Shown here piece after piece: positions 19,250 to 24,486 of a DNA stretch of 33,146 nt. The number at the start of each line of letters is the position of its first letter. The first letter of the stretch is position 1. This DNA is from an uncultured Candidatus Saccharibacteria bacterium (lineage in GTDB: Bacteria; Patescibacteriota; Saccharimonadia; Saccharimonadales; CAIOMD01): positions 1-33,146 of the forward strand of contig CAYRPO010000002.1 in NCBI GenBank assembly GCA_964426305.1, given 5' to 3'. Made by a program: the position numbers and the translations under genes. Below the pieces are notes generated by a model, which worked only from the letters and a program-made list of their open reading frames with translations, had not been told where the DNA came from and did not search any database.

Positions 19250-20359
19250 TTATAATACATGGTTCATTTTACTTTTTTTTGTTTCGAGATATCTTTTGTT
19301 GATTTCGTTAGGTTTGACCATGTGGGGGATTACGTCGTCAATTAATACGCCCAATTTTCGAAGCTTAATTGACTTGTCAGGGTTGTTGCTAAGAAGCCGT
19401 ATACTGCATACGCCTAAATCATCCAAAACGTCTCTTACGATGTCGTACGTGCGCATCTCTGAAGGTAAACCAAGGGCAAGATTGGCGTCTACGGTGTCTA
19501 GACCTTGACTTTGCAGTTTGTAGGCTTTGATCTTATTTATTATGTTTATGCCTCTCCCCTCTTGAAATAAATAAAACAGAATTCCGCAATCTTGCCTGGA
19601 TAGTATTTCAAGGGCCAGCTCGAGTTGCTCACCGCATTCACAGTGATTGGAGAACAATATGTCTCCAGTGATACATGAAGAATGGACACGAGTTAGCACC
19701 CCTTTGGATTGACCGACATCGCCTTTAATTAGAGCTAAGTGGTAAGAGTAGTCGACTTTGGACTGATACGCTCGCAACTCAAACAACCCATATTTTGTGT
19801 TTAACTTGGTTGATTCAACAAAATCATACATGGAATACGGTTTTGCGTTGATTCGCATACCACTCAAACAATCTGTAGCCACATTTCTTACGTTTTGTTC
19901 GCCGTCAACCTCAAAAAGCGAGCTTGCTCTTGTAGAGAGTATGGTGTCAACTTTTGTGCTATTTCTGTGTGATAAATAGTATTCATCAGTGATTTTCTGC
20001 TTGTCTTCAGCTCCCTGTCCACCGTGCAGAAGATAATTTAATGAGACATTAACTCGAATGACGGTAAGTTTAGCAATAAGTTTATCGTCAACCCACCTCA
20101 CAATTTCAGAGGCTTCGTGTGGATGAATACCAAATCCTCTGATTATTAATGTCTCATTTTCGTGAGAGCTAAGTGCTTCGCGCAGCATGGATACAAGGGA
20201 TTTCTTTTCGCCTGTACTCATGTTGTGAGTGTCGATATTTTGCTTCTTTGCAAGTTCCTCCCAAGATATAACTGGTGCGTTAAGAATTCTGCTTAATTCG
20301 TATGATAGCTCGGTCTTCCCGCTTGAAGGCGCACCTAGAAGTATGACTACGTCTTTCAC
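19250..20359 (-). CDS. Fusion protein: N-terminal P-loop NMP-kinase-like domain + C-terminal GTP cyclohydrolase II
   Basis: GTG start overlapping the upstream stop (GTGA). N-terminus has LLGAPSSGKTE. C-terminus has RVHSSCITGDILFSNHCECGEQL (three Zn cysteines of RibA), EGRGINIINKIKAY, DTVDAN and RLLSNNPDK. Confidence 0.85.
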   Translation of the reverse strand: MKDVVILLGAPSSGKTELSYELSRILNAPVISWEELAKKQNIDTHNMSTGEKKSLVSMLREALSSHENETLIIRGFGIHPHEASEIVRWVDDKLIAKLTVIRVNVSLNYLLHGGQGAEDKQKITDEYYLSHRNSTKVDTILSTRASSLFEVDGEQNVRNVATDCLSGMRINAKPYSMYDFVESTKLNTKYGLFELRAYQSKVDYSYHLALIKGDVGQSKGVLTRVHSSCITGDILFSNHCECGEQLELALEILSRQDCGILFYLFQEGRGINIINKIKAYKLQSQGLDTVDANLALGLPSEMRTYDIVRDVLDDLGVCSIRLLSNNPDKSIKLRKLGVLIDDVIPHMVKPNEINKRYLETKKSKMNHVL

Positions 20360-21360
20360 TGCAATATACCCTTTTCCGTTAGATCAATTAATGTGTCAAA
20401 ATCATTGTCCGTCCATGGATGTATGAAGCTAAATGCGAACAGAGTATGTTTTAATTTGGCTGCAAATGGAAACTGAGTGCTGTCAATCGCAGAATATGTT
20501 TTATTCCAGAAAGGCGTACATTTTTTGAAATTATTTGCGGCAAATCTGTCGTACATTGCTTGAGAGTCTGAGACTATAACAGGTAGCATAGTTGGAAACG
20601 CAACCTCGTGTGTGATCATAGACGATGCTATAGCAAGTTGATTATCATCTACGGCGCGACTTATTATCGCGAACACCTTAGAAAACTCACGCCTAACTTG
20701 TTTTGATCGTTCTTCTAACTCAGTTTTATTTGGAGCCTGCAAGTCATCATCAGTTAGTGTATAGCCGCCGTATTGGGCATATCGCGGCCCAAAAGGGTTT
20801 CGTGAATCAATACCCAGATGTATGCCACTACCTTGCGAAACAGCTCCAGTATGGTATCGACGGTAGTTTTCGCTCTCGTACTCTGCTACTTCGGATGGCA
20901 ACTGAGCAATCGGCGGCATATCTACAGGATCTTTACTCACTAGAAATGCACCATTTGGTGTTAGAAGTTGTTTACGAAGACTATATATGGCAAAGGCACC
21001 CATTGGTCGTGCCCTTTCTGTACTTAGGTCAATTAAGTTATAGGCATTATCAGTTATAACTTCTGCAAACTCGTGAGCATTGGGCAAACCAAAATAGTTT
21101 ACTATGAGCGCTTCGGAGATTGAGTCGTCTTGCCTTTGACTATGGAACAGACCATCTTTAGGATTGAAAATAACATCGTAAGGATGCATTTCAATACCGG
21201 CTTGACGTAATGCTTCTAGCTCATCACCGCACGCATAGGCGGGCACAGATAAATCCATAATACCTCTTTTTACGAGAGACTCAGCGGCCTTGTGTAATGC
21301 ATTTCTTCCAAACAGGAATGGTATTGTCTGCCTGTCATCGGCGATTCTTCGTTCTGTCAT
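20356..21360 (-). CDS. DegT/DnrJ/EryC1-like PLP-dependent enzyme (sugar aminotransferase/dehydratase fold)
   Basis: FGRNALHKAAESL...LSVPAYACGDELEALRQAGIEMHPYDV resembles the DegT N-terminal layout. YSLRKQLLTPNGAFLV resembles the SFhxxKxlttgeGG Schiff-base lysine region. ATGA overlap with the upstream gene. Confidence 0.55.
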   Translation of the reverse strand: MTERRIADDRQTIPFLFGRNALHKAAESLVKRGIMDLSVPAYACGDELEALRQAGIEMHPYDVIFNPKDGLFHSQRQDDSISEALIVNYFGLPNAHEFAEVITDNAYNLIDLSTERARPMGAFAIYSLRKQLLTPNGAFLVSKDPVDMPPIAQLPSEVAEYESENYRRYHTGAVSQGSGIHLGIDSRNPFGPRYAQYGGYTLTDDDLQAPNKTELEERSKQVRREFSKVFAIISRAVDDNQLAIASSMITHEVAFPTMLPVIVSDSQAMYDRFAANNFKKCTPFWNKTYSAIDSTQFPFAAKLKHTLFAFSFIHPWTDNDFDTLIDLTEKGILQ

Positions 21361-22217
21361 ATGATCTCCACGTCATACGTGCGAGTGAGTTGAGATGGTC
21401 TAAACTGCAATTTATGATTTCGAGTTCCTTCTTCTGTGCCCAAATCACCATCATTAATTCTTGTTTTGCCCTTAGCAAAAGCAGTCTCGAAGAGGTAAAA
21501 ATATAGATACGATGAAGCTTTTGTTGTGCCAGATCGTCTAGCGTCATTTATTCCTTTGGTGATGCATGCGATAAGAACATCGTCTCTTGAAAAGTCGTAT
21601 ATCGATATACCTGCCGGCCGGTCTCTATAGTACAGAACAACACCCTGAGTCTCTGTTGTGCTTTTGCCATGTGCTATTGCCCTCATCAATGATCCTTCCG
21701 CCTGAGACCTGTCTCGAGCGTATATGTCTGCTCTTTGACTGCGCCAAAGTTCATTTACTAGTAAGGCATCTGGCAATGTTGATGTGCTTAAAGCACGCAA
21801 GACAAAATCTGGATCCTCTAGTACCTTCTTTTTATTTCGGAGTTTGGCGTACTGGGATCCCTTTAGCTCACGCATCGTTTGAACGTCATAGAAAACTTCT
21901 TGGTCAGCTCTAATTACAGGACGCGTGCTAGACCCTCCTAGTTGGCGTATTTGTGCTACCTGTGAAGGGCTGCAGAATTTGATCCAAACAGACCTAGACG
22001 ATTCCCTTGTAGTGTCTTCATTTGGAATTGAGTGTGCCGCAATGATTTCCGAGATTGGAACAATAACCTGATGTTCGCTCTGAAAACTTAGCAACGGTCG
22101 ACCATCTTGCGACTCAATCTCAACTGGGCTATGGTCTCCTGCCAAATAATGTCCGTAGCTTTCGAATTGCTCATGTACGACTTGATCTGGATCGAATCCT
22201 ACTCTGTTAATGTTCAC
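21357..22217 (-). CDS. Hypothetical protein, possible DUF2156 (MprF C-domain/VlmA-like) aminoacyl-tRNA-dependent transferase fold
   Basis: GTG start preceded by AAGGTGAGAG, with an 11-nt overlap with the upstream gene. The C-terminal part, ...YYRDRPAGISIYDF...INDGDLGTEEGTRNHKLQFRP, recalls the ...lG.s...GL..FK.KF.P ending of LPG_synthase_C proteins. Memory-based and unverified. Confidence 0.45.
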   Translation of the reverse strand: MNINRVGFDPDQVVHEQFESYGHYLAGDHSPVEIESQDGRPLLSFQSEHQVIVPISEIIAAHSIPNEDTTRESSRSVWIKFCSPSQVAQIRQLGGSSTRPVIRADQEVFYDVQTMRELKGSQYAKLRNKKKVLEDPDFVLRALSTSTLPDALLVNELWRSQRADIYARDRSQAEGSLMRAIAHGKSTTETQGVVLYYRDRPAGISIYDFSRDDVLIACITKGINDARRSGTTKASSYLYFYLFETAFAKGKTRINDGDLGTEEGTRNHKLQFRPSQLTRTYDVEII

Positions 22218-23034
22218 AAACTCTCACCTTTCGAGGAACGAACAACGGAACTTCCAGATTAGGCATAAGTCGTGTGCGTTCAATAGCTGATTCTGACCAA
22301 AAGTATATTGCATCTGGATACCCACGGTTAATCTCAGCAGCCAAATACGGATATGCTATGGCTAGTTGTTCGGAGCGAGCATCTGACATTTCGTCGCTCC
22401 AGCCCAATAGCTCCGCATAACAGATACGGTTACGCATTTTGACAATATTTAAATCGGACGGGGAATGTTTAATGAGTTCAATCGACGTGCCTTCTTCGCC
22501 CAAAGTATCGGCAAGTGTATGTATCGAGCTTAACTTGATCGCATTAAAATCAGGTGGAATATTTTTCAGTAGATCAAGAAATGTATCATGTAAATCATCG
22601 GCGTAGCTGGTTCCCTTAAGCTCATGCAGATTTTCGAGAATTAAGTCGCTAAATAGTATTGTGATAGTTGACTTAATGTCATATTTTTTTGCAAGATTTG
22701 CAATATAGACTAGTGTATTAATATTCTCCCTTGTTTTGTTGCCAATCTTGTTGTTATAGCCATATATACCTGCACCTGTTTTGTATGAGGGGCAAAATAT
22801 GCTCACTAGCGCGAGTTTTTGTAACCCTAACCCAATTTTAATTATTTTCTTACGCAGTGCAGATTCTTGAGCTACATTTAAGTAGCCGATATTTGCAAAA
22901 TCAATGAACTCCTCGTAAAATTTCTCAGCCTGAACGAGGCGAGCATTCTCTTGTTCTGTAAACAAAATCTTTTGCCTACTAACCACCTGACCTATACCAG
23001 CGTTTGATGCAACTTGTTTGATTAAAATTGTCAT
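22207..23034 (-). CDS. Hypothetical protein (275 aa), function unknown
   Basis: ATG 23034 lies 10 nt after the tRNA CCA end. No family recognised with confidence. See the findings for a speculative cyclodipeptide-synthase-like motif spacing. Confidence 0.7.
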   Translation of the reverse strand: MTILIKQVASNAGIGQVVSRQKILFTEQENARLVQAEKFYEEFIDFANIGYLNVAQESALRKKIIKIGLGLQKLALVSIFCPSYKTGAGIYGYNNKIGNKTRENINTLVYIANLAKKYDIKSTITILFSDLILENLHELKGTSYADDLHDTFLDLLKNIPPDFNAIKLSSIHTLADTLGEEGTSIELIKHSPSDLNIVKMRNRICYAELLGWSDEMSDARSEQLAIAYPYLAAEINRGYPDAIYFWSESAIERTRLMPNLEVPLFVPRKVRVCEH

Positions 23035-23044
23035 AATATTCTCT

Positions 23045-23120
23045 TGGAGCCCGAGGACAGACTTAAACTGCCGACCTGATACAAACCATGTATCCGCTCT
23101 CTCTTCTGAGCTACTCGGGC
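23045..23120 (-). tRNA. Non-canonical tRNA-Thr(GGU)-like gene with encoded CCA
   Basis: The reverse complement folds as GCCCGAG-TA-GCTC-AGAAGAGA-GAGC-G-GATAC-ATGGTTT-GTATC-AGGTC-GGCAG-TTTAAGT-CTGTC-CTCGGGC-T-CCA. That is 76 nt with all four stems intact and anticodon GGT. The D loop lacks GG, the T loop is TTTAAGT, and position 37 is T. Confidence 0.8.
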
Positions 23121-23133
23121 ATATCGTGTGGAA

Positions 23134-23811
23134 CTATATAACTTTTACTTCCCTCGCCGCAACGCTTACGTCCAAAATATCACCAAGTTCCGACAGCACA
23201 ACTTCTGGTGGCTTCGAAGTGGTGTCGATATGGCTTATGGCAAAACCAGACATTTGTAGATGACTGAATAGCCTCGGCACCGTCTCGGTATAGTCAGTAA
23301 ACCTTCTTTGAAATGATACTAGCTCATCATCGGTTCGGGCTGTGACGGTATTGCTACCACATCTGACACACGTGATCATGTCCGGTGCTTGCATATCGCA
23401 TTTTTGACAAATGCGACGCGAAGATACCCTTTGCGAAGCCTGTTCGAGGTCAACGTCAAATACTGCAACTGTGCCCGGAATTATATCGGGACGACTATTC
23501 AGCATATCATCGAGTATCTTTAGCTCTCGAGGCCACTTTGGAAAACCGTCGAATACTATATTTTCGGCTACGCATGAGCTGAGCGATCGTTCAATAATAC
23601 GAGACATGATACAACGTGGGTATTCTCTGACGGTCTCAAGATACGCACGCATGCGCTTTGACAGAGCTGTATCTTGTCTCAGTTCGTTTCTGAAGAGTGC
23701 ACCGACAGAAACATAGTCAATCTCTTGGCCGTCTATCCCTTCTATGGCCGTTGTTTTGCCAGAACCTGGAGGACCATAGAGAATATGGACTTTTTGGAGT
23801 GACTCACTCAT
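23134..23811 (-). CDS. Adenylate-kinase-family protein with zinc-type LID (divergent paralog)
   Basis: GPPGSGKTT (canonical Adk has GKGT), VSVGALFR, VFDGFPKWPREL, LID CQKC...CVRCGS, and RTDDELVSFQRRFTDY. Confidence 0.8.
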   Translation of the reverse strand: MSESLQKVHILYGPPGSGKTTAIEGIDGQEIDYVSVGALFRNELRQDTALSKRMRAYLETVREYPRCIMSRIIERSLSSCVAENIVFDGFPKWPRELKILDDMLNSRPDIIPGTVAVFDVDLEQASQRVSSRRICQKCDMQAPDMITCVRCGSNTVTARTDDELVSFQRRFTDYTETVPRLFSHLQMSGFAISHIDTTSKPPEVVLSELGDILDVSVAAREVKVI

Positions 23812-23814
23812 AAT

Positions 23815-24315
23815 TTAGCTCTCTTCAAATAGCGATAAGTCGCGGTCAACAGAAACTATCGTAAATGTTGATTTTTGATTAACAGAAACTACGTCGCCAG
23901 GTTTTTTGCCAAGAAGCGCAGCTCCAAGCGGTGTGTCATAACTGATTGTTCCATTGTCAGGTTTTCCTTCGCCGTGGCCAACGATTGTCCAAGTTTTTTG
24001 TATCCCTTTATTTGAGAGTAATTCGACGATTGATCCGATCCAAACTTCGTCGACAGGTCGTTCGCATACTGAATCTGTGTCCAGTATCACCGCTGCGTCT
24101 AAAATGCCTTGTATGCGATTCCTGCTAGTAGGAATTTCAAATTGTACTTCTGCGCGGTGTTGTTTGAACTCGGTATTTTCAGGCAAGTCTGGATCTCGGC
24201 GGGCTGCTTCGCCAATGAGACGAAACAATTCTTTTTGTCGCGCATTAAGCATTTCAAGTTGCGTGTCTAGCAGCTCGCGGCCTCTTGGTGTTAGGTATAA
24301 AGATGAATCGGACAT
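23815..24315 (-). CDS. greA: Transcript cleavage factor GreA family
   Basis: LTPRGRELL..., coiled-coil tip DLPENTEF (acidic D/E pair retained), and a C-terminal domain ISYDTPLGAALLGKKPGDVV. The track start at 24333 is TTG, so the ATG at 24315 is preferred. Confidence 0.85.
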   Translation of the reverse strand: MSDSSLYLTPRGRELLDTQLEMLNARQKELFRLIGEAARRDPDLPENTEFKQHRAEVQFEIPTSRNRIQGILDAAVILDTDSVCERPVDEVWIGSIVELLSNKGIQKTWTIVGHGEGKPDNGTISYDTPLGAALLGKKPGDVVSVNQKSTFTIVSVDRDLSLFEES

Positions 24316-24486
24316 CTGAGTATTATTCCACAATAATTAAATTATGTAAATATTATTATAGAATAGTCATATTTGAAGTATTGTATATAATCTGCATCAC
24401 ACATTTTGACTGTAAATAAAGAAAAATAGTTCCAGTGCTGCTGCATGTTTTGTGACCCAGACTTATCATTTTTACCTACACTAAAA

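Follow-up and report, generated by a model that had tools for sequence, protein, structure and literature searches.

The DNA analysed here, which we call the window, is a stretch of 33,146 nucleotides from an uncultured Candidatus Saccharibacteria bacterium (assembly GCA_964426305.1, contig CAYRPO010000002.1), and is one of the contigs in a Patescibacteria-type genome of 844 kb (89.6% complete). On its minus strand lies a compact gene cassette containing two open reading frames (ORFs), of 275 and 286 amino acids (aa), that follow an additional tRNA gene. A preliminary description of this DNA had tentatively proposed that the two ORFs encode enzymes utilising aminoacyl-tRNA, because they lie behind a "private tRNA". 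Both ORFs are found on the minus strand, at the positions and with the lengths that it gave, and the tRNA is indeed an extra tRNA-Thr copy, situated 10 nt upstream of the start codon of the 275-aa gene. From upstream to downstream, the features of the locus are:

24350-24322: promoter-like site upstream of greA
23815..24333, minus strand: GreA-like factor, first gene of the operon
23134..23811, minus strand: adenylate-kinase-like (Adk-like) P-loop kinase, a constant member of the cassette
23045..23120, minus strand: supernumerary, non-canonical tRNA-Thr(GGU)-like gene, identified by ARAGORN as tRNA-Thr(GGT), between the Adk-like and 275-aa genes
22207..23034, minus strand: 275-aa protein of the "CPSY" family, with an ATG start and a predicted class-Ic aminoacyl-tRNA synthetase (aaRS)-like Rossmann fold without ATP motifs
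21357..22217, minus strand: 286-aa protein, a predicted divergent DUF2156/LPG_synthase_C tandem-GNAT protein with a GTG start, putatively an aminoacyl-tRNA transferase
20356..21360, minus strand: 334-aa DegT/DnrJ/EryC1-like fold-type-I pyridoxal phosphate (PLP) enzyme, with an invariant K130
19250..20359, minus strand: P-loop kinase domain fused to GTP cyclohydrolase II (RibA), 369 aa
18727..19245, minus strand: DUF84 (YjjX-type ITP/XTP) NTPase, which closes the cassette

The 275-aa and 286-aa genes overlap by 11 nt, the 286-aa and 334-aa genes by 4 nt, and the 334-aa and 369-aa genes also by 4 nt; no convincing internal terminator was found within the run of genes. Both ORFs are real genes, because they have homologues across the Patescibacteria and in one DPANN metagenome-assembled genome (MAG), and because their AlphaFold2 (AF2) models have pLDDT values of 93-95. 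They are translationally coupled, and form part of a rare, mobile Patescibacteria cassette. A Gre-like gene flanks most of the related loci.

The 286-aa ORF had been described as ending with a motif like that of the DUF2156/LPG_synthase_C family, and as a possible aminoacyl-tRNA-dependent transferase. The motif, INDGDLGTEEGTRNHKLQFRP, is present, although at residues 254-274 it lies near the C terminus rather than at it, with 12 residues remaining after it. Membership of that family is borne out. A profile built from the 286-aa protein and its single close relative retrieved 80 proteins from 1.84 billion representatives, and 35 of the 41 family members that were aligned matched PF09924 (LPG_synthase_C/DUF2156) at E <= 0.01, the best at 2e-13. 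Fused relatives scored 27.7-35.9 bits on PF09924 against a curated cut-off of 27.5, and the weakest profile matches (P0057 and P0060) were textbook PF09924 proteins, at 144-159 bits. A precomputed PF09924 flag on protein P0002 was not reproduced by hmmscan, and the link to PF09924 is drawn from the wider family instead. Within the 41 sequences, G260, E262, G264, K269 and P274 are invariant and H268 is nearly so, while G257 is also listed as invariant in the 286-aa protein. The family profile also matched a DUF2156 crystal structure, 2hqy (E = 5.9e-5), in an alignment covering the central Y..L.G......RN and the C-terminal G.E.G.R.HK..F.P motifs of the family.

The AF2 model of the 286-aa protein (pLDDT 95, pTM 0.92) gave a consistent picture. 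Its best Foldseek match was again 2hqy (E = 3.4e-14, TM 0.72), with 4v36, 5vrv, 6lv0 and 7duw at E values of 1e-11 to 1e-10; after 2hqy, the nearest structures were L-PGS, MprF (aa-PGS), FemX and the aminoacyl-tRNA-dependent peptide synthase Sbb17. Judged by its sequence relatives and predicted structure, the 286-aa protein is a divergent member of the DUF2156/LPG_synthase_C family with a duplicated GNAT fold and, by analogy with those relatives, a putative aminoacyl-tRNA-dependent transferase. Tandem GNATs that use acetyl-CoA also appear in the Foldseek list, far lower down, and would favour an acyl-CoA-dependent enzyme of the Eis/MshD kind, to which the neighbouring tRNA would be irrelevant. 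We regard this as very unlikely, because DUF2156, aa-PGS, FemX and Sbb17 take all of the top places, with E values 5-8 orders better, because the PF09924 motifs are conserved, including the lysine of the C-terminal motif, and because a dedicated tRNA is conserved in the cassette.

With the known DUF2156/LPG_synthase_C enzymes, i.e., the C-domain of MprF/aa-PGS, VlmA, fungal ErdS and the stand-alone 2hqy, the 286-aa protein has in common its tandem-GNAT fold, both motifs (central and C-terminal) and the invariant lysine. Unlike them, it is soluble, lacking a membrane domain, is by itself too divergent for the Pfam model, and has a CPSY protein, not an aaRS or a flippase, as its partner or fusion domain; its acceptor would likely be a small, nucleotide-derived molecule and not a lipid. 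FemX and peptide synthases of the Sbb17-Orf11 type have the same double-GNAT architecture (Foldseek E values of 1e-10 to 1e-8), but do not match at the sequence level; in addition, the cassette encodes its donor tRNA within the operon, and the acceptor that we propose would be neither a peptidoglycan precursor nor streptothrisamine. A conserved lysine in the C-terminal motif is common to these enzymes and the 286-aa protein: K305 of FemX and K329 of DhpH, both of which are essential, match K269 in motif position (PMC12945691).

The 275-aa protein alone gave no match in Pfam or NCBIfam scans, and its 21 aligned family members matched no Pfam family, even at E = 5. The sequences LALVSIFCPSY (residues 74-84) and Y230-LAA-E234 sit where the preliminary description had placed them. 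It had drawn from their spacing a weak likeness to class-I aaRSs and to cyclodipeptide synthases (CDPSs) of the AlbC type. That argument does not hold at the level of motifs, since the residues in question are conserved in only 13 (S78), 8 (Y230) and 2 (E234) of the 21 members. Those that are invariant are instead F80, C81, P82, Y84, G92, G98, D130, E134, N135, R201, Y206, W212 and R220, with S83, E248, S249, E252 and R253 nearly so. A likeness to CDPSs at the sequence level was not found either: hhalign compared the family with four CDPSs from Patescibacteria at a probability of 0.3%, and PF16715 (the CDPS family) matched nothing in this genome, while matching five other Patescibacteria genomes.

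The likeness of fold, however, was upheld. The AF2 model of the 275-aa protein (pLDDT 93.5) has a Rossmann fold, for which Foldseek gave first the isonitrile synthases PIsnA (E = 1.8e-6) and PvcA, and then the tyrosyl-tRNA synthetase TyrRS, the longest aligned stretches being those with PIsnA/PvcA. Significant matches of profile or structure to duplicated-GNAT or CDPS-related folds, as had been predicted, were obtained for both proteins, and the preliminary reading is largely supported. The catalytic Rossmann fold is common to TyrRS/TrpRS, CDPSs, IsnA/PvcA and the 275-aa protein, from which the ATP-binding motifs are missing, HIGH and KMSKS being absent from all 21 members. In synthetases the first Rossmann strand is followed immediately by the HIGH loop; in the 275-aa protein it is "CPSY" that directly follows this strand (residues 74-80). 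The 275 residues span the fold of the catalytic domain only, leaving no anticodon-binding domain.

Several assignments were considered for this protein and rejected. Without HIGH, KMSKS and an anticodon-binding domain, it is not a synthetase of the TyrRS/TrpRS type. To CDPSs it is related by fold only, given the hhalign result, the silence of PF16715 and the lack of conservation at the Ser, Tyr and Glu positions; its invariant residues (C81, Y84, D130, E134, R201 and R220) differ from theirs, and it is ~40 residues longer at the N terminus. It resembles IsnA/PvcA in fold, but PF05141, the family to which these belong, did not match it at E <= 1 or any of the 21 members at E <= 5; in a search of genomes this profile matched none of the control genomes, so that search had no positive control. 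Nor do the cassette genes include, in Pfam or NCBIfam searches, a partner Fe/2OG oxygenase of the IsnB/PvcB type, and the protein is linked instead to tRNA genes and GTP cyclohydrolases. A weak match to DUF3273 (E = 0.11) found no backing in the other members or when the genome was searched, and a sequence-profile search of the PDB with the family returned only riboflavin kinase and an SPX domain, which we judged to be chance matches. The absence of a Pfam match, the Rossmann model, the loss of HIGH and KMSKS and the lack of homology to CDPSs together argue that the 275-aa protein founds a new family, CPSY, within the class-Ic synthetase-like fold.

In some lineages the two proteins are also joined physically. 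The N-terminal halves of two larger proteins, P0015 (583 aa) and P0029 (615 aa), match the 275-aa family with hhalign probabilities of 100% and 99.9%, and their C-terminal halves align to PF09924; at two further loci, L008 and L009, there are single fused ORFs of 637 and 658 aa. Searches with PADLOC and PHROGs returned nothing for either ORF, with no sign of a defence or phage family, and tblastn against 50,697 phage records and a scan of viral contigs also yielded nothing for either.

The order Adk-like kinase, tRNA, 275-aa protein, 286-aa protein, 334-aa DegT-like protein, kinase-GTP cyclohydrolase II and DUF84, which we term type I, recurs at ten loci in reference genomes (Saccharibacteria, Paceibacteria, Taylorbacteria, Amesbacteria and one Nanoarchaeota MAG) and at about fifteen in metagenomes, i.e., ~25 loci in all. 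The cassette is rare: none of 60 relatives from the same family or order was found to contain it, and among 400 other genomes sampled from the phylum a member of the 275-aa family was detected in only two. Alone, the 334-aa protein had no Pfam match; its family profile matched the DegT/DnrJ/EryC1 sugar aminotransferases (E = 2.5e-18), with K130 invariant in an SLRK motif. RibD_C and lumazine synthase are absent from this genome (89.6% complete), and because of this absence the cyclohydrolase II does not feed riboflavin synthesis, which rules out a riboflavin-pathway context for the cassette.

At nearly all type I loci a tRNA-like gene is found at this position in the gene order, also at two where ARAGORN missed it. 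In the window genome three normal tRNA-Thr genes (CGT, GGT and TGT) lie elsewhere, and the cassette tRNA is a fourth. It has no G18G19 in its D loop and has U at position 37. Across lineages the acceptor, D and T arms of the cassette tRNAs are near-identical and the anticodon stem covaries, while position 34 is variable (A, C, G or U). They keep G35-U36, G1-C72, C2-G71 and U73, which are identity elements for the threonyl-tRNA synthetase (ThrRS). The cassette tRNA appears to be non-decoding, having lost features of decoding tRNAs. The use of non-proteinogenic tRNA isoacceptors is known from the staphylococcal Fem enzymes.

That the tRNA is merely an ordinary gene or the integration site of an island, its adjacency to the two ORFs being without functional meaning, is an explanation to which we give almost no credence. 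tRNA genes often serve as insertion points, and G+C content falls to 0.41-0.45 over 19-24 kb of the window, where the cassette lies, compared with ~0.50 in the flanks and 0.54-0.57 past 28 kb, a dip that would fit horizontal acquisition of the cassette. However, the tRNA travels with the cassette over distant lineages, in the same slot and with near-identical acceptor, D and T arms, and it is an extra, non-canonical copy. A different role for the tRNA would follow if the 275-aa protein were an aaRS-derived loader that attached a non-standard group (either a modified amino acid or a moiety derived from GTP) to its 3' end, for the DUF2156 enzyme to pass on. The loss of decoding features would suit such a role, as would the position of the CPSY gene, fused to or directly upstream of the transferase. 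We nevertheless consider a loader improbable: without HIGH and KMSKS there is no evident ATP activation, the protein has no anticodon-binding domain, and the retention of the ThrRS identity elements (G35-U36 and those of the acceptor) fits ordinary charging.

A scan of metagenomes revealed a second CPSY clade, with 22-29% identity to the window protein, that retains CPSY, D130, E134, R201, Y206, W212, R220 and E252 and is cleanly separated from the type I clade in a FastTree tree. Its members belong to a different cassette (type II), comprising GTP cyclohydrolase I, CYTH, CPSY, Adk-like and ASCH genes, which we found at ~24 loci, with DUF2156 in none of them. The GTP cyclohydrolase I matches PF01227 at 143-154 bits, and in some loci is fused to an Adk domain. 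In three early-branching lineages of this clade an aberrant tRNA lies directly upstream of the CPSY gene; the three are a Val(AAC) tRNA with C33, a tRNA with a 6-nt anticodon loop and a Gly(UCC) tRNA without GG in the D loop. Beside type II CPSY genes there are four aberrant tRNAs in all, two of them of this Gly(UCC) kind. A representative type II cassette and the aberrant tRNAs directly beside type II CPSY genes are located as follows:

L041:3060-6125: type II cassette (likewise L015, L016, L036-L039 and L042-L060)
L016:1427-1502: aberrant tRNA
L036:4415-4489: aberrant tRNA
L047:4892-4964: aberrant tRNA
L045:6251-6325: aberrant tRNA

A type I locus without the DUF2156 and DegT-like genes was also found (L024:4205-7678), containing Adk-like, tRNA-Thr(TGT), CPSY, kinase-GTP cyclohydrolase II and DUF84 genes. 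A tRNA thus accompanies CPSY without DUF2156 at L024, L016, L036/37 and L047, and the tie of CPSY to a private tRNA therefore does not depend on DUF2156. It also follows from these loci that CPSY is constantly accompanied by a GTP cyclohydrolase, Adk-like kinases and an NTP hydrolase, and no gene is linked more steadily than CPSY to the private tRNA and to a GTP cyclohydrolase. The type II CPSY cassette and the DUF2156-independent tRNA link are new in the present analysis. At two type II loci (L056:4779-5622 and L058:4824-5666) the CPSY gene is broken into two or three frames, which points to a frameshift, a pseudogene or a fault of assembly.

The analysis shows the folds and family links of the two enzymes, their fusion in some lineages, the conserved gene order and the link to the tRNA. 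Beyond this we infer a donor, an acceptor, an order of steps and a role for Cys81, in a scheme that we think somewhat more probable than not: the cassette would attach threonine, in a tRNA-dependent manner, to a ring-opened product of GTP. The housekeeping ThrRS would charge the cassette tRNA, and the kinase-GTP cyclohydrolase II would make the ring-opened GTP product (a diaminopyrimidine). The 286-aa enzyme would take threonine from the non-decoding tRNA-Thr-like RNA of the cassette and transfer it to an amino or hydroxyl group on a small acceptor. The 275-aa CPSY protein would also act on the aminoacyl-tRNA end, in the manner of CDPSs and possibly via the invariant Cys81, coupling the amino acid to the ring-opened GTP product. 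Between them, the CPSY and DUF2156 enzymes would thereby acylate the ring-opened guanine nucleotide, or one of its derivatives, with Thr-tRNA as the donor. The DUF2156 and DegT-like (PLP) enzymes would afterwards lengthen or modify the product, whose phosphate state would be set by the kinases and the NTPase.

Three points weigh against this scheme. The 286-aa protein alone matched nothing in Pfam or NCBIfam, PF09924 included. Most type II loci have no adjacent tRNA, and therefore the CPSY family may not need one. Finally, the equivalence of Cys81 to the catalytic serine of CDPSs, which lies at the same site in published alignments, is presumed from its position after the strand. The second point bears also on another possibility, in which the 275-aa protein is IsnA/PvcA-like and condenses an amino group with a keto-sugar phosphate, e.g., the Amadori (ribulosyl) form of the cyclohydrolase product, in a tRNA-free reaction, so that the private tRNA would serve the DUF2156 transferase only. 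PIsnA and PvcA provide the top Foldseek matches and the longest alignments, an Atlas feature search gave clusters with PF05141 in 11% of their members, and the scarcity of tRNAs in type II cassettes and the constant company of a GTP cyclohydrolase would both be accounted for. We think this rather unlikely, because PF05141 matches none of the 21 members even at E = 5, because the cassette contains no oxygenase of the IsnB/PvcB type, and because a tRNA lies directly upstream of CPSY in four contexts that are free of DUF2156.

A wider proposal, which we consider less likely than not, can also be made. After the CDPSs, CPSY might be a third group of enzymes using aminoacyl-tRNA that arose independently from the class-I synthetase fold; a Cys nucleophile would join an amino acid carried by tRNA to the ring-opened guanine nucleotide that GTP cyclohydrolase I or II produces. 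Each lineage would have its own non-decoding carrier tRNA (of the Thr, Gly or Val type), and the products would be metabolites or cofactors, pterin-like or of an amino-acid-pyrimidine kind, of a class that has so far gone unseen in ultra-small bacteria.

Known tRNA-dependent enzymes of small-molecule metabolism comprise the Fem/DUF2156 GNATs, the CDPSs, the LanB-like PEARLs and aaRS-like enzymes (PMC12945691), and in full-text literature searches we found no description of the cassette or of the CPSY family. To this repertoire the cassette adds a DUF2156 transferase that is paired, and in some lineages fused, with an unclassified enzyme of aaRS fold, a tRNA of its own without decoding features, and a tie of both enzymes to GTP ring-opening in organisms without riboflavin synthesis. 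If the scheme is correct, it would provide a new enzyme family, a new metabolite made from GTP and an amino acid, and a clear example from nature of a tRNA set aside for chemistry outside the ribosome.

Two further members of the cassette in the window deserve comment. The Adk-like gene (23134-23811, minus strand) is the sole adenylate-kinase homologue found by tblastn in the 89.6%-complete assembly and may therefore double as the housekeeping Adk. In the DegT-like protein (20356-21360, minus strand) the IEDCAH stretch found in most orthologues is missing, as a deletion in the alignment, while the lysine of the SLRK motif is kept; from its sequence, this protein may be a weakened or altered PLP enzyme.

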